Positions 780-24,721 of a stretch of DNA of 32,000 bases are shown piece by piece (within the stretch, counting starts at the first letter, position 1; each line of letters starts with the position of its first letter). The notes under the pieces are model-generated. The model was not told the DNA's origin and made no database searches. It saw nothing but the letters and a program-made list of their open reading frames with translations. The DNA is from an uncultured Alphaproteobacteria bacterium (lineage in GTDB: Bacteria; Pseudomonadota; Alphaproteobacteria; Rs-D84; CACZYB01), in NCBI GenBank assembly GCA_934246625.1, contig CAKQHZ010000002.1:1-32000 (forward strand). The letters run 5' to 3'. Both the position numbers and the translations under genes were made by a program.

Positions 780-785
780 AACAAT

Positions 786-809
786 CCCCTCCTTTGAGGG
801 GAATTTTTT
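786..809 (+). terminator. intrinsic terminator of the 30..779 gene (inside repeat copy 1)
   Basis: Stem CCCCTC (786-791) / GAGGGG (796-801), loop CTTT, then AA + T6 (804-809). Confidence 0.8.
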
Positions 810-813
810 ATAC

Positions 814-842
814 TTGCAAAAAGAAGCGAATCGTGATAATAT
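814..842 (+). promoter_or_regulatory. sigma70-like promoter inside repeat copy 1
   Basis: TTGCAA (814-819), 17-nt spacer, TAATAT (837-842). The same cTTGCAA -35 form recurs at other promoters in this window (6207, 24694). Confidence 0.6.
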
Positions 843-848
843 ATAAAA

Positions 849-919
849 CATAGACATAGAGAATAAGAAACAAACAACTCTTTGAAAGGCTGATTACCTT
901 TAAAGGGATTTTTTATTTT
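849..919 (+). ncRNA. candidate ~70-nt sRNA, copy 1
   Basis: Predicted TSS is about 7 nt after the -10 element. An A-rich, apparently unstructured 5' part (cauagacauagagaauaagaaacaaacaac) is followed by a hairpin of 879-889 with 897-907 (7-nt loop, one mismatch, two G-U pairs) and a U-rich tail. There is no ORF. The next gene has its own promoter. Confidence 0.5.
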
Positions 920-932
920 TATAAAATAATTG

Positions 933-958
933 TTGACAAATAAATAAATTGGTATAAT
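933..958 (+). promoter_or_regulatory. promoter of the 971..1252 ORF (extended -10)
   Basis: TTGACA (933-938) and TGgTATAAT (950-958). The spacer is only 14 nt, but an extended -10 TGn is present. The -10 ends 12 nt before the ATG and there is no Shine-Dalgarno, so the mRNA is nearly leaderless. Confidence 0.5.
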
Positions 959-1253: not shown

Positions 1254-2129
1254 TTATTTTTCACACTCGCCACAATCAGAACAACCATTGCAACAAAGTC
1301 TAAGTCCACAAGTATCACAACGGCTTCTGAAATGTGGAACATATTCTTCTACATTTTCAAACAAAGATAGTTGAGGTTTAGTCAAATTAAATTTGAACTC
1401 CCTGCCCTTGAATTGAAGTCCAGATTTAAAAGCCATCTGACTTTGTAATTGTTTGCTTGGCATATTATAAAGTTTACCATCTTTAATAAAATTCGTGCCA
1501 GTTTCCATAAAACAAAATGTAGTATTTGCCTCTACACACTCGTCATACAAACTTTTAACCCAATCATAATTTAGTGGTCGTGAACCATCATAATTTTCAC
1601 CACAAGCAATAACTTGTTCTATAACACCCTTTGACAGATATTGTTTTATTGACATAGGCCCAATAAACGGAGCAACCATAATTCCCTTATGTTTAAATGG
1701 CAAATCAAATAATATTGGAATTCGCTCATCTGCCCTTTTTTGATTTTCACATGTTGTATTAAAGAAAATATTTTCCCAACCATCACCCCAATCCTTTGGA
1801 AGATGATTCGCAACACGTTCAGGTCGTTTTGTAAGCAAAAAGAATATAACATCTGGGCGTTGTTTCATAATGGACCAAGCCTCATCTCGCCAAACATCAG
1901 CTTCCTCAAGAAAAAAATCAGATGTCATACAAACACGAAGTTGTTCGCCACTTTTTATTTTAAAATTACCATTTTTATCTTTTGAAAGCGGATAATAAAA
2001 GTTGTTTTTCACCTTAAATATTCTGGAACCATCTTGATTGCGTTGTTTATCTAAAAAATACATATAGCAATTCGCACAACCTTCACTTTTCTTTAAACAA
2101 CCATGCCAAGGATTCCAAATATCGTGCAT
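1254..2129 (-). CDS. DUF5131 / phage Gp37-Gp68 family protein with a Cys-rich C-terminal tail
   Basis: N-terminal WNPWHGCLKKSEGCANCY matches the family signature WNPxxGCxxxSxGCxNCY. LLTKRPERV and the CGENYDGSRP..DWV blocks are also present. The extra tail CDTCGLRLCCNGCSDCGECEK is unusual. GAGG Shine-Dalgarno upstream. Confidence 0.8.
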   Translation of the reverse strand: MHDIWNPWHGCLKKSEGCANCYMYFLDKQRNQDGSRIFKVKNNFYYPLSKDKNGNFKIKSGEQLRVCMTSDFFLEEADVWRDEAWSIMKQRPDVIFFLLTKRPERVANHLPKDWGDGWENIFFNTTCENQKRADERIPILFDLPFKHKGIMVAPFIGPMSIKQYLSKGVIEQVIACGENYDGSRPLNYDWVKSLYDECVEANTTFCFMETGTNFIKDGKLYNMPSKQLQSQMAFKSGLQFKGREFKFNLTKPQLSLFENVEEYVPHFRSRCDTCGLRLCCNGCSDCGECEK

Positions 2130-2198: not shown

Positions 2199-2288
2199 TG
2201 GCGGATGGGGAGGGATTCGAACCCCCGGTGGAGTTGCCCCCACAACGGTTTTCAAGACCGCCGCATTCGACCGCTCTGCCACCCATCC
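2199..2288 (-). tRNA. tRNA-Ser (anticodon UGA)
   Basis: Reverse complement reads GGATGGG-TG-GCAGAGCGGTCGAATGC-GGCGGT CTTGAAA ACCGT-long variable arm-GGGGG TTCGAAT CCCTC-CCCATCC-G-CCA. It folds as a cloverleaf with a long variable arm, anticodon loop CU-UGA-AA and an encoded CCA. Confidence 0.93.
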
Positions 2289-2340
2289 ACAAAAGATAGA
2301 GGAATTATACATCATATAAAAATAATTTGCAAGAATTTTA

Positions 2341-5117: not shown

Positions 5118-6194
5118 ATGAAATGGGTAAAACAACAACAAAACGCAATTACATCAATCGAAACTTTATCAAAAAAATTTCCGAAATATAATATTGCGAA
5201 ACAAACAAACTTTAATTTAAAAATCACCCCTTACTATCTTTCATTGATTGATAAGGATAATCCAAACGACAAACTTGCAAAAATAGTTATTCCCTCATCA
5301 AAGGAATTAAATATAAAACCCGAAGAACTTGACGACCCAATCGGAGATAAAACAAAAAACGAAGATTTAGATAATTCTCCTGTAAAGGGACTTGTTCACC
5401 GCTATGACGACCGTGTATTGATATATATGGGAAATGTTTGCAGTTCATATTGTCGTTATTGTTTAAGAAAAAATATAATCAAAAATACACCAATAACAAA
5501 AAAGGATATTGAAACAGCAATAAATTACATAAAAAAAACAAATGTAATAAAAGAGGTAATTTTAAGTGGTGGCGACCCACTTATGAATTCTGACGAATTT
5601 TTGTTTGATACAATAAGGAAAATTGAAGCAATTCCGCATATCAAAGCAATTCGAATTCATACAAAAATGCCAATTTACAATCCATTCAGGATTACAAATG
5701 ATTTCATAAAACAAATCAAAACTATAAAAAAGCCACTTATAATAATAATTCACGCATCACACGAACGCGAACTTACAGATATAGTCAAAACAAAACTTAA
5801 AAAACTTCAAAAATGCGGTGTAATACTTTTAAATCAATGTCCATTACTAAAGGGAATAAACGACACCATCGAAGAACAAACAAAACTTGGCTACAGACTT
5901 CAAGAATGTGGAGTTTTGCCACATTATCTACACTATATTGATTTGGCAAAGGGCACATCACATTTTCGTGTTCCATTAAAGGACGCAAGAAAACTTATGA
6001 AAGATTTACGTGGACACATAAGCGGACAACTTATACCAAAACTTATACTTGATATACCAAGTGGATACGGGAAAATCCAACTTGAAGATACATTTATAAA
6101 GGAAATATATAACGACGGGAAAAATACCTTTATCAAAATTCAAAGTCCAAATATCAAGAATAAAATCCTAACATACAAGGAAGTTTTGGAATAA
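5118..6194 (+). CDS. KamA-family radical SAM protein (lysine 2,3-aminomutase / EpmB-like)
   Basis: 358 aa. Radical SAM cluster motif CSSYCRYCLRK, SGGDPL, and N-terminal ITPYYLSLID typical of the KamA family. AAGGAG Shine-Dalgarno upstream. Confidence 0.88.
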   Translation: MKWVKQQQNAITSIETLSKKFPKYNIAKQTNFNLKITPYYLSLIDKDNPNDKLAKIVIPSSKELNIKPEELDDPIGDKTKNEDLDNSPVKGLVHRYDDRVLIYMGNVCSSYCRYCLRKNIIKNTPITKKDIETAINYIKKTNVIKEVILSGGDPLMNSDEFLFDTIRKIEAIPHIKAIRIHTKMPIYNPFRITNDFIKQIKTIKKPLIIIIHASHERELTDIVKTKLKKLQKCGVILLNQCPLLKGINDTIEEQTKLGYRLQECGVLPHYLHYIDLAKGTSHFRVPLKDARKLMKDLRGHISGQLIPKLILDIPSGYGKIQLEDTFIKEIYNDGKNTFIKIQSPNIKNKILTYKEVLE

Positions 6195-6206
6195 TAAAAT
6201 TCCTTC

Positions 6207-6235
6207 TTGCAAAAATCAATTTAAAAATATATAAT
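6207..6235 (+). promoter_or_regulatory. sigma70-like promoter upstream of the structured region
   Basis: TTGCAA (6207-6212), 17-nt spacer, TATAAT (6230-6235). Confidence 0.65.
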
Positions 6236-6241
6236 AAACCT

Positions 6242-6448
6242 CGGATAAGGCAAAATCCTTATCTGGGGTCGTAGAAAGCCTCTAGTAGATTGCTTGTAGT
6301 CATATCAAAATGCTACATTCTAAAACTCAGTCTGGGATTCAACCTTTGGGTTGGATATCGGCTGAATAAGGTATTGGCTGAATAAGCCGAGCCATAAATC
6401 TACATGGTTTTCTAATATCCACCCCTTACAAAAGCTAAGGCTTTTTTT
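6242..6448 (+). ncRNA. candidate structured RNA (riboswitch-like 5' leader or independent ~205-nt ncRNA), class not recognised
   Basis: Visibly GC-enriched relative to its flanks. 5' hairpin 6243-6250/6257-6264. A three-segment long-range helix (6265-6269/6421-6425, 6273-6280/6406-6413, 6285-6290/6398-6403) encloses hairpins 6295-6300/6312-6317, 6337-6344/6349-6356 and 6358-6363/6385-6390. A weak hairpin 6424-6428/6436-6440 plus T7 follows. The only ORF here is an implausible antisense one. Confidence 0.5.
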
Positions 6449-6470
6449 ATAACTAAAGGGAGGAAAAACC

Positions 6471-6908
6471 ATGAACAAATCTTTTATCTTTAGTTGTTTA
6501 TTTTGTGCAACTATACCTTTCAACACCTCGTCCTTTGCAAACGAAGGATATGGAGCTTACCCTGGAGGAGGCACAAGTTATACAACTTTTCCAACCAACA
6601 CAATATCCGAACTTACAAAAGTTTTACAAAAATATTGTGTTCCAGATAATGCCTCAGTTTGTAATTCCAAATATCAGGCAACTTTTAATGAAAGTTTCAA
6701 CACGTGTGAATGCAAAAGCTGTGGACTTTTTTATAACAAAAAAACACGTCTATGTGAACAATGTCCAAAGGGAACATACACAACCGACCGACACTCTTCT
6801 GAATGTTTAAAAATTGATTGCGGTGGCGGTTATCGTGTTGTTTTAATGGAAGACACAGAAACTTGTCCAAAAGGTTATAAAAAAATCAAAGTATCAATAT
6901 GTAATTAA
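6471..6908 (+). CDS. secreted cysteine-rich protein, paralog 2
   Basis: 145 aa. GGGAGG Shine-Dalgarno upstream. Signal peptide ending in SSFA|NE. Contains CEQCPKGTYTT and ETCPKGY. 11 Cys after the signal peptide by my count. Confidence 0.75.
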   Translation: MNKSFIFSCLFCATIPFNTSSFANEGYGAYPGGGTSYTTFPTNTISELTKVLQKYCVPDNASVCNSKYQATFNESFNTCECKSCGLFYNKKTRLCEQCPKGTYTTDRHSSECLKIDCGGGYRVVLMEDTETCPKGYKKIKVSICN

Positions 6909-6913
6909 AATAT

Positions 6914-6982
6914 GGGTGGAAGTTTTTTTATCATAGTCTTTGCTTCCACCCTCCCAAAAGCACTTATTGGGGAAAGTGCTTT
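6914..6982 (+). other. two perfect 9-bp stem-loops in the paralog 2 - paralog 3 spacer
   Basis: GGGTGGAAG (6914-6922) pairs with CTTCCACCC (6943-6951) around a 20-nt U-rich loop. AAAGCACTT (6957-6965) pairs with AAGTGCTTT (6974-6982). Confidence 0.6.
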
Positions 6983-7013
6983 GATAAATTATTCACCCCA
7001 AAAGGAGACCATT

Positions 7014-7466
7014 ATGAAAATAAATACTATACTTGCAATCGGAACATTACTTTATCCACAAATTGCAAAAGCAGACTTATATAAATGTGAACTTTGCCCT
7101 GCTGGAACCTACAGCGATGGTAAAAGTCTTGAATGTTCAAAATGTCCAGTTGGAACCTATTCAAACAAAAGTGGTGTATCATCTTGCACCCCTTGCACAA
7201 ACTTTCGTCCTGGTTTTTCTCACTATACAACAAGTGGTGGCACAAAAAATGAATGTGCTTGGAGTTGTAATGCTGGCCTTATTTACACATCTAGCAATGC
7301 TGGGGGTTGTTGCCATGAACCTGCTACCCCAAACCATAACTCCTCATCACCAAAAACATGTAAAAGAGAAGCCATTTGCAGAAGTTATTCTGGAACATTT
7401 TTATGGTCAATTGGAGGCGGTGCCTGCACTCCTCTTGGTTCAAAAAAATGTATTGAATACAACTAA
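7014..7466 (+). CDS. secreted cysteine-rich protein with CxxCPxGTYS repeats, paralog 3
   Basis: I chose the start at ATG 7014 (AAGGAGA Shine-Dalgarno 6 nt upstream), not 6912. Signal peptide MKINTILAIGTLLYPQIAKA|D. Contains CELCPAGTYS, CSKCPVGTYS and AGGCC (shared with paralog 1). 14 Cys by my count. Confidence 0.8.
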   Translation: MKINTILAIGTLLYPQIAKADLYKCELCPAGTYSDGKSLECSKCPVGTYSNKSGVSSCTPCTNFRPGFSHYTTSGGTKNECAWSCNAGLIYTSSNAGGCCHEPATPNHNSSSPKTCKREAICRSYSGTFLWSIGGGACTPLGSKKCIEYN

Positions 7467-7499
7467 ATACTCCCCTCCTTTGAGGGGAATTTTTTATAC

Positions 7500-7528
7500 T
7501 TGCAAAAAGAAGCGAATCGTGATAATAT
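7500..7528 (+). promoter_or_regulatory. sigma70-like promoter inside repeat copy 2
   Basis: TTGCAA (7500-7505), 17-nt spacer, TAATAT (7523-7528), identical to copy 1. Confidence 0.6.
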
Positions 7529-7534
7529 ATAAAA

Positions 7535-7605
7535 CATAGACATTGAGAATAAGAAACAAACAACTCTTTGAAAGGCTGATTACCTTTAAAGGGATTTTTT
7601 ATTTT
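7535..7605 (+). ncRNA. candidate ~70-nt sRNA, copy 2
   Basis: Same promoter, A-rich body and terminator hairpin as copy 1. The next gene downstream is convergent, so this promoter has no mRNA to drive. The one a/t difference (7544) lies in the single-stranded part. Confidence 0.5.
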
Positions 7606-7649
7606 CAATCCTTACAAATTAAAAAACTCCCCATAAAGAGGAGTTTATT

Positions 7650-8195
7650 TTACTTTTTCAATTTAATATATGGTCCAACAGTAAAAATCTTATTTGGGTC
7701 ATCAAATTTTAATTCCACAAAGTATTTTTTTGTATCAATATCCTTTCCAACAAAAAATTCAACTTCAGGAAGCTCTTTTACCCCCTCACCTTCCTTTACA
7801 TTAAATGAAAGAAGATAAGGCATATTTTTTTCACTATCCCAACCATCAACGAACCAAATTAGTTTATTTGCATTTCTATTTATAACATATCCACCATTGC
7901 TAAACACTTCATACTTTACCATATAATAAGTTCCAGCATCTAACTTTTTAACATCTGGTCTGAATTTTGAAGGAGGCATATTAAATATAGCTTTAAAAGT
8001 TCCCATTCCAGCATGAAAGATAGAAGAATCATCTTCACTAAAACCTTTTTTTCTCCAATATGTTTTTACATTATATCCATTTTCATCTTTAAATCTAAAG
8101 GCAACCTCTGTTGGATTAGATGATTTTAATTTTGGTTGACTTAACGCACACGCAGTCAAAAATACAAAAACAAATAATGTTAAAATTTTTTTCAT
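7650..8195 (-). CDS. hypothetical lipoprotein
   Basis: I chose the start at the MKKILTLFVFVFLTAC lipobox methionine (AAGGA Shine-Dalgarno upstream), not the ORF-track start at 8237. 181 aa. No family recognised. Confidence 0.6.
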   Translation of the reverse strand: MKKILTLFVFVFLTACALSQPKLKSSNPTEVAFRFKDENGYNVKTYWRKKGFSEDDSSIFHAGMGTFKAIFNMPPSKFRPDVKKLDAGTYYMVKYEVFSNGGYVINRNANKLIWFVDGWDSEKNMPYLLSFNVKEGEGVKELPEVEFFVGKDIDTKKYFVELKFDDPNKIFTVGPYIKLKK

Positions 8196-8276
8196 AATAA
8201 ATCCTTTCGTTTTTAACAAAACTATTGTCGCAAACAAAATAAAATAGTCAATAAAAAAGATTATTTTACTATAATT

Positions 8277-9566
8277 TTAAGAATTTTTCTTTCGTCTTAG
8301 GTTTTCCCAATAATCAAGACGCTTTTTAATTTCACGTTCAAACCCACGTTCCACAGGTGTATAAAACTTTTGTCGTTTCATACTTTCTGGGAAATAATTT
8401 TGCCCTGAAAATCCCTCTTTTGTATCTGGGTCATAAATATATCCCTTTCCAAAACCTTGCTTTTCCATCAATTTTGTTGGTGCATTGATTATATGCATAG
8501 GAGGATTAAGGGAACCCGTAGATTTTGCCACCGCAACCGCATTATTCCAAGCAACTTCACTTGCATTTGATTTTGGTGCAGTCGCAAGATATATAACCAA
8601 AGACGCAACCGCCAAATCACCCTCAGGAGAACCCAATCTTTCGTATGCTTGCCAAGCATTTATTGCATAAGGCAAAGCGTGAGGGTCCGCAATTCCAACA
8701 TCTTCCACCGCAAAACGAGTAAGTCTTCGCAAAATATACTTCACATCTTCACCACCTGTAATCATTCTTGCAAGCCAATAAAGCCCCGCATCAACATCAC
8801 TACCACGAAGTGATTTATGAAGTGCGGAAATAAGTGAATAGTGTGCATCTCCCATTTTATCATAATTAGGAAGTCGTGTTTGAATAACCTTTGGCAAAGT
8901 CGCCTCATCAATAATTTTACCATTTGCAAAATCATAAATCATTTCAATCATATTAAGCAAATAGCGACCATCACCATCAGAAATTGCCACCAAATTTTTT
9001 CTTGCTTGCTCGGTCAAGGGAAGAGCCTGCTCCATCTCGGACTCTGCACGGGAAATAAGTTTTTCCAATGCTTCCTCATTAAGGCGTTTTAAAATAATCA
9101 CCTGACATCGTGAAATCAAAGCAGAATTAAGCTCAAACGATGGATTTTCTGTTGTCGCACCAATAAGTGTAATTGTCCCATCTTCCACATAAGGAAGGAA
9201 ACTATCTTGTTGAGCCTTATTAAAACGATGAATTTCATCAACAAAAAGTATAGTTCTTTTACCAACATTACGCAAACTTACCGCATCGGCAAAAACTTTT
9301 TTCAAATCGGCAACCCCAGAAAAAACCGCAGACAACATAACAAACTCTGCATCAGCATACTTTGCAACCAATTTTGCAATAGTTGTTTTACCACAACCAG
9401 GAGGTCCCCATAAAATCATAGACTTTATATTACCACTTTTAAGCTGATTAGTAATAATTCCATCATCACCCAAAATATGTTCCTGACCAACGACATCAGC
9501 AAGACTATCAGCACGAAGTCGTTCAGCAAGCGGAGTCCCAATTTTTGTTTCAAAAAGTTCGTTCAT
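8277..9566 (-). CDS. rarA: replication-associated recombination protein A (AAA+ ATPase, MgsA/RarA)
   Basis: 429 aa. Walker A GPPGCGKTT, Walker B FVDEIHRFNK, and C-terminal MgsA blocks (HYSLISALHKSLRGSD, YLARM). Confidence 0.92.
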   Translation of the reverse strand: MNELFETKIGTPLAERLRADSLADVVGQEHILGDDGIITNQLKSGNIKSMILWGPPGCGKTTIAKLVAKYADAEFVMLSAVFSGVADLKKVFADAVSLRNVGKRTILFVDEIHRFNKAQQDSFLPYVEDGTITLIGATTENPSFELNSALISRCQVIILKRLNEEALEKLISRAESEMEQALPLTEQARKNLVAISDGDGRYLLNMIEMIYDFANGKIIDEATLPKVIQTRLPNYDKMGDAHYSLISALHKSLRGSDVDAGLYWLARMITGGEDVKYILRRLTRFAVEDVGIADPHALPYAINAWQAYERLGSPEGDLAVASLVIYLATAPKSNASEVAWNNAVAVAKSTGSLNPPMHIINAPTKLMEKQGFGKGYIYDPDTKEGFSGQNYFPESMKRQKFYTPVERGFEREIKKRLDYWENLRRKKNS

Positions 9567-9734
9567 AATAAATCCTTAATAAAAAAGGATTATAAACTAA
9601 AAATAAATAATTGCAAGCCCTACTTGTTCATATTTTGTTTTGGTCTATTTGTGAAATATTTTGAAATAATTCTTGTATTGAGCTTTTTTCAAAGAAATTG
9701 TAAAATAAAAACAAATAAATTTAAGGATATAAAT

Positions 9735-12794: not shown

Positions 12795-13709
12795 CTATGG
12801 TCGTTCCAACTTTATATTTGATTTTTTATTGGTCATAAAAATCCCCAAAAGAACAAGTATTCCACCATAAATTTGTGCAGGATAAATATTTTCTCCTAAT
12901 AAGAAATAAGCCTCGACCGAGCTAAAAACTGGCATCAAATAATAAATCATACTTGTTTTAAGAGAACCAATTTTTTCCAATGATATATTCCAAAACAAAT
13001 AAGAAAGCACAGAATTAAACAACCCCATACCAACCAAAACCCACACTTCCAAACTATCCCAATGTAAAATCGGATTTATATGATTATCATAAACAAAAAA
13101 TGGAAATATTATAATAACCGCTAAAAATATAGTAAATGAAAGTGTTGTTATTTGAGATAAATCCTTCGGCTTAAATTGTGAAAGCACACTATAAATCGCA
13201 AAAAACAAAGCAAGACACGCCATATACAAATCACCTATTTGAAAGGACAAATCACCCACAGAAATAAATTTTCCATGAAGGATTATTATAATCACCCCAA
13301 CAAAGGAAACAAAAATCCCCCAAAATTGAAATTTTGAAACATAAGTATGTAAAAAGATTCGAGAAAGAATCACAATAAACACAGGCCCCATCACACCAAT
13401 CAAACTCATTTCAACGGCACTTACTGTTTGACCAGCAATATATGAAAAAGTATTCATCAAAACAATACCTGTAAAACTTAACCAAAAAAGAATTTTAAAA
13501 TTTTGTAAAATCTTATCCCAATTTTTAAATACACTTTTAAGGACAAACGGCATTAAAAAAATCGTTGCAAAAAACCATCTGTAAAATGCAATTTGCCAGG
13601 GTGTAAAAACATCTGCAAAATATCTTGCAACAATAACATTAAAACTCCAAAACAAAACCGCAAGAACGGCATAAACATAACCTATAATTGTATTTTTTAT
13701 ATTACTCAT
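12795..13709 (-). CDS. EamA/DMT-family transporter
   Basis: About 10 predicted TM helices with a duplicated EamA-like architecture. ATG 13709 is preferred (AGGTGG Shine-Dalgarno 5 nt upstream) over GTG 13718. It overlaps the upstream outer-membrane-factor gene by 8 nt. Confidence 0.8.
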   Translation of the reverse strand: MSNIKNTIIGYVYAVLAVLFWSFNVIVARYFADVFTPWQIAFYRWFFATIFLMPFVLKSVFKNWDKILQNFKILFWLSFTGIVLMNTFSYIAGQTVSAVEMSLIGVMGPVFIVILSRIFLHTYVSKFQFWGIFVSFVGVIIIILHGKFISVGDLSFQIGDLYMACLALFFAIYSVLSQFKPKDLSQITTLSFTIFLAVIIIFPFFVYDNHINPILHWDSLEVWVLVGMGLFNSVLSYLFWNISLEKIGSLKTSMIYYLMPVFSSVEAYFLLGENIYPAQIYGGILVLLGIFMTNKKSNIKLERP

Positions 13710-24627: not shown

Positions 24628-24693
24628 ATAAAATTAAAATATAATCGCAAAACAAAATAAAATCAATAATTTCAATAAAGTTAAAAAAATTAC

Positions 24694-24721
24694 TTGCAAA
24701 CAAAAAGTAATATGATATAAT
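24694..24721 (+). promoter_or_regulatory. promoter of tRNA-Pro
   Basis: TTGCAA (24694-24699), 16-nt spacer, TATAAT (24716-24721), about 20 nt before the mature tRNA 5' end. Confidence 0.55.

Follow-up and report, generated by a model that had tools for sequence, protein, structure and literature searches.

What does the single long direct repeat at this locus encode? A repeat search of the window (the whole stretch analyzed, 32,000 nucleotides [nt] of contig CAKQHZ010000002.1 from an uncultured alphaproteobacterium, with a GC content of ~31%) returns only one such repeat, whose copies at 779–919 and 7465–7605 are 141 nt long and 98% identical. A sequence-only reading had taken each copy for a promoter-to-terminator unit that makes nothing but a short RNA. 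That proposal is supported by conservation of the whole unit in seven metagenome-assembled genomes (MAGs) and four metagenome contigs, by conservation that falls on promoter-critical positions, by covariation in the hairpin, and by neighboring genes that are often divergent or convergent. With a probability of about 70%, we regard each copy as an independent gene for a noncoding small RNA (sRNA) of ~62 to 66 nt, one of a multicopy family of siblings in low-GC, uncultured gut Alphaproteobacteria; the anatomy of the unit, its pattern of conservation, the covariation, and its independence from neighboring genes are direct observations.

The two copies are identical without a break from 785/7471 to 919/7605 (copy 1/copy 2), except for one mismatch (858 A versus 7544 T), and their identity stops precisely where the T tract ends (ATTTT, 919/7605). 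Most of the proposed layout is confirmed: the terminator of the upstream gene (listed by a terminator scan) precedes each copy, both carry TTGCAA, a 17-nt spacer and TAATAT, and sequence and fold agree on the ~30 nt of A-rich, unstructured sequence, the 11-position hairpin, and the U tract that follow. Likewise, the sole difference between the copies does lie in the putative seed, the mismatch at 858/7544 falling within a conserved 5′ motif. Absent from the earlier description is an extended −10 TG, present in both copies at 834–835/7520–7521, with the hexamer TAATAT at 837–842/7523–7528. The features are as follows, with the coordinates of copy 1 in parentheses where copy 2 is given first:

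784–919, plus strand: repeat copy 1, comprising the terminator of the upstream gene and the entire small-RNA unit (repeat search, alignment).
7470–7605, plus strand: repeat copy 2, of the same composition (repeat search, alignment).
7471–7496 (785–810), plus strand: terminator 1, that of the cysteine-rich gene 6912–7466, TCCCCTCC-TTTG-AGGGGA followed by T6 (sequence, read there as 785–802/7471–7488; terminator scan).
7500–7505 (814–819), plus strand: −35 element TTGCAA, as cTTGCAA (sequence, family alignment).
Between −35 and −10, both copies: spacer of 17 nt (sequence).
7513–7524 (827–838), plus strand: invariant block CGAATCGTGATA, a candidate operator containing the palindrome CGAaTCG, the extended −10 TG, and the first two −10 bases.
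7520–7528 (834–842), plus strand: extended −10 element TG-a-TAATAT (sequence, family alignment).
7535–7600 (849–914), plus strand: predicted RNA of ~62 to 66 nt (promoter geometry, fold).
7540–7546 (854–860, there ACAUAGA), plus strand: conserved 5′ motif ACAUUGA, candidate seed (alignment).
7547–7563, plus strand: A-rich linker, unpaired (alignment, fold).
7564–7593 (878–907), plus strand: terminator hairpin CTCTTTgAAAGG / CTGATTA / CCTTTAAAGGG, 11 bp with a bulged G (covariation).
7594–7605 (908–919), plus strand: tail A-U6-A-U4 (A-T6-A-T4 in DNA), where the repeat ends (sequence).
933–958, plus strand: separate promoter of the 93-amino-acid (aa) gene downstream of copy 1, TTGACA ... TGgTATAAT, outside the unit (sequence, promoter scan).

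Terminator 1 belongs to the repeat in the window species and lies outside the family-wide unit; one of the related copies discussed below (L012 copy a) has no terminator 1. The repeat measures 137 nt in the window species, versus ~107 nt for the family-wide unit, because the tract homogenized in the window species includes the upstream terminator.

The promoter is the most constrained part of the unit. Within the window, the composite TTGCAA-N14-TGnTAnnnT occurs exactly twice (in the two units) versus 0.08 times expected. An alignment of 27 units is invariant at the −35 TTG, at the 13-nt GCGAATCGTGATA (which includes the extended −10 TG plus the T and A that open the −10 hexamer), and at the A and T in −10 positions 5 and 6; because the leading GC of this block is not kept in L021b, a copy that came to light afterward, only CGAATCGTGATA counts as the core that is invariant throughout the family. 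Position 3 of the −10 is free (A, T, or C) and position 4 is T, occasionally C, which yields the forms TAATAT, TATTAT, TACTAT, and TATCAT. Indels are lacking between the −35 and the −10 and begin immediately after the −10. A housekeeping-sigma promoter depends above all on TTG, TG, and TAnnnT, and on sequence grounds the variation (TTG / N17 / TG / TAnnAT, with no indels) is the signature of such a sigma-70 promoter. The same cTTGCAA also forms the −35 of tRNA-Ser, tRNA-Pro, and MgsA in the window, at the right distance from TATAAT. Overall, the heptamer CTTGCAA is found 27 times in the window versus 6.9 times expected, a fourfold excess (e.g., 2327–2333, minus strand; 9611–9617, minus strand; 24693–24699, plus strand), and several of these sites form the −35 of evident promoters (those of tRNA-Ser, tRNA-Pro, MgsA, and both sRNA units, and a promoter at 6207). 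Three of the CTTGCAA sites are palindromic (CTTGCAAG) and lie within genes.

A plain promoter leaves one part of this conservation unexplained, judging from the alignment: the 7-bp palindrome CGAATCG, located in the spacer, never varies. At zero mismatch, the 12-mer CGAATCGTGATA is confined to the units (~0.24 Mb scanned, conspecific strain loci left out), and the invariant spacer block with its CGAaTCG is a candidate operator. A direct-repeat response-regulator site of the form TTGC-N6-TTGC was rejected, as the second TTGC is not kept (AAGC in the window; TAGC, CAGC, and CCAC elsewhere).

Beyond the two window copies, we recovered 29 distinct units, which come from strains of the window species, from seven further MAGs of gut or rumen Alphaproteobacteria, from one scaffold of a related species, and from four metagenome contigs; each MAG holds at least two to three copies. 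The family stayed hidden until L012, the locus of a species with 85% identical MgsA, revealed which block is conserved: L012 has two diverged copies, ~70% identical to those of the window, in which TTGCAAAA-N4-GCGAATCGTGATA(A/T)TAT is intact and the transcribed part is different. When 185,579 species-representative genomes were searched for TTGCAAAANNNNGCGAATCGTGATA, 15 sites emerged, distributed over seven MAGs (one to three sites each), all of them gut or rumen Alphaproteobacteria-type bins, although two are labeled Bacteroidales by their depositors. All 15 of these promoter-block sites then carry the 5′ motif, the hairpin, and the T tract in a common layout: (A)TACATTGA ~8 nt after the −10, a variable stretch of 16 to 22 nt, and C(A/T)CTTTGRAAGG-loop-CCTTTAAAG(T/G)G-ATTTTTT. 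The converse scan of metagenome contigs, with the RNA part only (ACATTGA...CTTTAAAGKGATTTTT), gave five sites, four of which carry the promoter block even though it was not required (with TTGCGT among the −35 variants); the fifth is a coincidental match within a coding region. From 27 distinct aligned units we built a covariance model, which scores the units above at 91 to 121 bits and found two extra copies with a variant −35 or spacer (L019:5986–6096 and L021:1246–1350); everything else in 240 kb stays at ≤25 bits.

Paralogs within one genome are nearly identical in three species (the window species, E19_bin253, and E20_bin364) and clearly different in RGIG8969, RUG13061, SRP199465_co2_466, and Mgla_MAG_30; as such, both homogenization and divergence of siblings occur. 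In RUG13061, two different paralogs flank rppH (encoding a NUDIX RNA pyrophosphohydrolase-like protein) and face each other (L019:5317–5420, plus strand, and 5986–6096, minus strand). Within the window species, both copies are present in all six nonredundant conspecific loci (L002 to L007) at 96 to 100% identity. The few strain polymorphisms are found within or just upstream of the −35, in the gap that separates the −10 from the 5′ motif, inside that motif itself, and in linker and loop; in these six loci none affects the stem or the CGAATCGTGATAATAT block. The A at 858 is the minority allele, shared only with L005: copy 1 has T, the family consensus, in four strains and ACATTAAG in one. The MgsA/RarA protein of the window, which itself belongs to a 56.6-kb contig from a human-gut metagenome assembly, is unchanged on 76 contigs.

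Exact scans with the RNA of the window species itself gave zero matches, whether with a seed 22-mer against genome contigs or with a hairpin 24-mer against metagenome contigs, as did a hairpin 23-mer against viral contigs. Promoter plus 5′ motif has no match in viral contigs, the unit has none in phage records, and plasmid records hold one 48-nt chance match only. No unit lies within ~10 to 21 kb in L008 and L009 (MgsA 92 to 94% identical) or L010 (86%), an absence that is uninformative because synteny breaks right after MgsA. In L008 and L009, genes for a helix-turn-helix protein, DsbA, DciA, and MreC follow MgsA in place of the 181-aa gene, the cysteine-rich genes, and the sRNA unit (compare window positions 7650 to 9566); from this loss of synteny, the first 8 kb of the window is a variable chromosome region.

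Folded from 7 nt after the −10, the RNA forms a 29-nt unpaired 5′ part followed by the hairpin. The sequence-only reading had placed the seed at 849–878, and this holds in part: across species, only the 5′-most ~10 nt, ACAUUGA(G/U)RR, are conserved, and the remaining A-rich tract (~7547–7563; 16 to 22 nt across the family) differs in sequence and length between paralogs and between species. Counted from the predicted start, ACAUUGA occupies +3 to +9 in most members; a 3-nt insertion moves it to +6 to +12 in the window species. No conserved forward-strand open reading frame (ORF) was found on inspecting the sequence, neither TTG nor ATG frames being kept.

Compensatory changes support the hairpin. 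Taking the structure from the window copy, 97.0% of 297 cells across 27 units are standard pairs, a figure somewhat favored by using one aligned sequence as the reference (the double changes are unaffected), compared with 91.4% ± 0.9 in column shuffles and 24 to 72% when the 3′ partner is slid by one to three columns. Changes on both sides occur in 5 of the 11 pairs, and none of 500 shuffles matches any of five measures. Pair 2 goes from U·G to A-U (15 versus 12 sequences), and the other double changes are A-U to G-C, A-U to U-A, and, in two pairs, G-C to A-U; RNAalifold predicts the same helix independently. Covariation in the loci of relatives, which had been suggested as a check, is thus present.

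Whether such a unit stands on its own depends on its neighbors. In the window, the upstream genes of both copies (30–779 and 6912–7466) are distant paralogs, cysteine rich and with Ephrin-receptor-like/TNFR-like repeats. Copy 2 is followed, as had been stated, by a convergent gene on the minus strand (7650–8195/8237) with its own terminator at 7646–7624. The 93-aa gene downstream of copy 1 (971–1252) has, also as stated, a promoter of its own (TTGACA ... TGgTATAAT at 933–958), so the unit in copy 1 does not drive it. The start of the convergent gene differs between sources: the ORF list has it at 195 aa with TTG as the start codon (7650–8237, minus strand), and the public gene call has it at 181 aa, starting at 8195.

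Across the family, we listed the nearest ORFs for 23 units, the downstream gene being scorable in 21. Of the 23, 10 have a divergent upstream gene; of the 21, 13 have a convergent downstream gene; and five units lack a co-oriented neighbor on either side; with such neighbors, neither read-through nor a leader of the next gene explains the family. Units also recur at orthologous positions, namely, between tolQ and rppH (L014, L015, L019b, L028, and L030), after a 98-aa gene (L016, L017, and L031), and after a MiaB-like gene (L024 and L032), which indicates vertical inheritance.

The competing explanation that survives best, which we nevertheless consider unlikely, makes the unit a 3′-untranslated-region (3′-UTR) or terminator cassette transcribed by upstream read-through only, with the block as an RNA processing or protein-binding site and the hairpin as a shared bidirectional terminator. 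Seven of the 23 units favor it, as a co-oriented gene stops 2 to 15 nt before them and no further terminator is present. Nine units have a convergent gene that stops no more than 16 nt from the hairpin, and the A- and T-rich stretches on either side of the hairpin could let it act as a terminator in both directions. These close gene ends indicate that the hairpin probably does terminate neighbors on both strands. The 10 units with a divergent upstream gene, however, have no source of read-through, and a strong GC-rich terminator separates gene and unit in the window, L012b, and L013. Moreover, TTG / N17 / TG / TAnnAT without indels is the pattern of a promoter, not of a folded RNA, and the only helix predicted in the block consists of four invariant pairs with no covariation.

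Very unlikely, in our view, is a module acting in cis on the downstream gene, be it a portable promoter cassette or a promoter combined with an attenuator or leader. Eight units are followed by a co-oriented gene 6 to 224 nt away, such as rppH (L014, L015, and L030) or, in the window, the 93-aa gene. Yet the downstream gene is convergent in the 13 units already mentioned, the orthologous rppH in L019 is oppositely oriented, window copy 1 has a separate strong promoter after its terminator, and no alternative antiterminator fold is apparent.

Still less probable is a nonfunctional or selfish intergenic repeat (of the kind of miniature inverted-repeat transposable elements or repetitive extragenic palindromes) or a recent segmental duplication or gene-conversion tract. 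The near-identity of copies within each of three genomes, together with their difference between species, would fit, as would the inclusion of the neighboring terminator in the window repeat. Inspection of the sequence reveals no terminal inverted repeats or target-site duplications, however; units occupy orthologous positions in different species, divergent paralogs coexist in four MAGs, none of the six strain loci lacks either copy, and the invariant positions and compensatory stem changes indicate selection.

The weakest candidate, to which we give hardly any credence, is a micro-ORF on the opposite strand, possibly an Ibs/Sib-like type I toxin: the complement of ACATTGA supplies an ATG in most copies, the frame (M-Y-x-x-I-I-S-R-F-A-x-F-C-K) is open through the block in every copy, the 3-nt insertion of the window species keeps it, and a multicopy sRNA with an antisense ORF repeats the known Ibs/Sib arrangement, but there is no Shine-Dalgarno sequence (the 20 nt upstream are pyrimidine rich in all copies), six copies (those of L012, L013, and L021, and L015) lack a start codon, three have early stops (L019b two codons past the ATG, L028 and L032 at codon 12), the tails of 0 to 30 aa are unrelated, codons 3 and 4 are unconstrained (V/K/E/S and Y/T/I/C/S), the peptide has no hydrophobic helix, and the strand has no conserved promoter, with the ORF lying downstream of the hairpin.

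An independent sRNA gene accommodates these observations best, although several points count against it. In the seven units close behind a co-oriented stop codon, part of the RNA pool could be 3′-UTR read-through. The whole RNA folds at only about −8.5 kcal/mol, with an AU-rich, weak hairpin, and its ends, put at 7 to 8 nt past the −10 and inside the U tract, are read from promoter and terminator geometry. The RNA body diverges fast (~70% identity to a species with 85% identical MgsA), and the promoter block in the DNA is better conserved than the RNA. The promoter itself matches the Escherichia coli consensus TTGACA/TATAAT at 8 of 12 positions only, for which reason a generic promoter scan skipped the site. 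As to targets, the seed forms no better duplexes with the window's 33 translation-initiation regions or with local leaders than shuffled seeds do, and the complement of the 5′ motif is found at no gene start in the loci searched, both scans having very little power since they cover the window and these loci rather than whole genomes. Finally, ARN/Hfq-type periodicity in the linker does not exceed composition-matched expectation, though a U tail is present. Neither hfq nor proQ occurs in the DNA examined, which is far from a whole genome.

No known family accounts for the unit, as had been suspected. Rfam 15 has no family that reaches its gathering score on the unit and nothing credible at E < 10: the best matches there score 14 to 22 bits versus thresholds of 40 to 195, and only tRNAs pass in the window and ten related loci. 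The block sequence turned up in no paper of the library searched. What we describe is a probable new sRNA family that has a known sibling-sRNA layout and matches no described family.

The closest parallels are OmrA/OmrB of enterobacteria and Qrr1 to Qrr5 of Vibrio, trans-acting siblings whose seed is conserved at the 5′ end and whose terminator is Rho independent. Like these RNAs of ~60 to 90 nt, the RNA proposed here is short, has its own predicted promoter, and is encoded in several paralogous copies per genome; its 5′ end is unpaired and conserved, its middle varies, and it closes with a U-tailed terminator hairpin; the extra conserved promoter sequence suggests, in the manner of Qrr and Omr, one common regulator. 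It differs in having no sequence or Rfam relationship to them, one hairpin only, and a host from an uncultured alphaproteobacterial gut lineage. AbcR1/AbcR2 and other multicopy alphaproteobacterial sRNA families in Rfam are similarly multicopy and intergenic, but those families have two or three hairpins and C/U-rich anti-Shine-Dalgarno motifs in loops, whereas the RNA here is purine and A rich with a single hairpin. DapZ and MicL are sRNAs embedded in the 3′ ends of genes, with an internal promoter and the host gene’s terminator, a situation resembled by the seven members in which the unit begins 2 to 15 nt past a co-oriented stop codon and its hairpin is the gene’s only terminator; in contrast, the window copies are set off from the upstream gene by a strong terminator, and ten members lack a co-oriented upstream gene. 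The Ibs/Sib (QUAD) repeats of E. coli, a type I toxin-antitoxin system in which an sRNA is paired with an antisense ORF, were likewise first noticed as multicopy intergenic repeats that each encode a small RNA with an ORF readable on the opposite strand, but the opposite-strand ORF here has no ribosome-binding site or promoter, is not hydrophobic, and lacks a start codon or is truncated in several copies.

Taken as an sRNA gene, the unit would work as follows, although transcription itself, the exact ends, action in trans, the seed, and the regulator are matters that we infer. Housekeeping-sigma RNA polymerase would start at cTTGCAA-N17-TGnTA(A/T)TAT, ~7 nt past the −10 (near 849/7535), and the spacer palindrome CGAaTCG may be an operator for a regulator. 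Transcription would end at the covarying 11-bp hairpin and U tract (near 914/7600). The single-stranded 5′ region, with ACAUUGA(G/U)RR at its extreme 5′ end, would probably act as the seed, pairing in trans with mRNAs; we propose ACAUUGA for this role because well-studied sRNAs, RybB and OmrA/B among them, carry the seed at an unpaired extreme 5′ end. The variable linker may be a spacer or a paralog-specific extension, and in many members the hairpin would also be the sole terminator for flanking genes on either strand.

It is possible, though improbable, that the unit is not an ordinary base-pairing sRNA and that the siblings are programmable under one dedicated regulator, or that the cassette itself is what is selected. 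This idea draws on the block in the DNA, with its invariant CGAaTCG palindrome in the spacer, being the most constrained part, and on a layout that could be read as a constant 5′ handle (AUACAUUGA), a paralog-specific segment of ~16 to 22 nt, and a constant 3′ hairpin. If the siblings are programmable, each copy carries a different specificity segment; if the cassette is selected, it might, for example, titrate a regulator or insulate convergent genes.

Several other features of the window deserve mention. The 6.7 kb between the two copies were considered as a repeat-bounded mobile element and rejected as such, as they hold housekeeping genes instead: DUF5131, tRNA-Ser, GalE, UDG, BOF, and a KamA-like radical SAM enzyme lie between the copies, and the ordinary chromosomal genes around them include LpxA, LpxI, guanylate kinase, and an RND efflux pump. 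The DUF5131 protein (1254–2129, minus strand), of a family usually seen in phages, adjoins tRNA-Ser (2199–2288, minus strand) in this housekeeping context, with no other phage genes nearby. Three cysteine-rich proteins (30–779, 6471–6908, and 6912–7466, plus strand) have eukaryote-type Ephrin-receptor-like/TNFR-like repeats (PF07699 and PF23091); the one at 6912–7466 is 184 aa long in the window and 149 to 154 aa in other strains, and these proteins are fast evolving and presumably secreted or on the surface.

A cTTGCAA-N17-TATAAT promoter at 6207–6235 (plus strand) precedes a strongly folding region of ~210 nt. The region (6206–6452; −73.5 versus −46.6 kcal/mol in shuffles, z = −6.7) has no Rfam match and closes with a weak hairpin and T7, immediately upstream of the ribosome-binding site that serves the cysteine-rich gene at 6471. 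Positions 6200 to 6470 (271 nt) are 100% identical in six of seven conspecific loci, including the contig of the window, and differ by one base in the seventh, although the neighboring genes vary; the region is a candidate for a new structured leader or noncoding RNA on the plus strand. In L012, a different intergenic stretch, unrelated to the unit, lies downstream of another cysteine-rich gene and its terminator (13050–13180, minus strand). It contains TATATT, which resembles a −10, and a core rich in GC (GGGCCGUCAGAAGCC), finishes with a hairpin and T tract, and may be another small RNA.

For the lineage concerned, which is abundant in Hadza and ruminant gut samples, the finding offers an entry point: the regulatory RNAs of uncultured gut Alphaproteobacteria are essentially uncharted, and the family provides a covariance model for annotating these MAGs, with the invariant spacer block as a candidate regulon marker. 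The predicted start (~7535) and end (~7600) can be checked in existing gut metatranscriptomes. An sRNA family of this kind is unsurprising in itself and would gain weight if the invariant operator or the variable middle defines a new regulatory logic.

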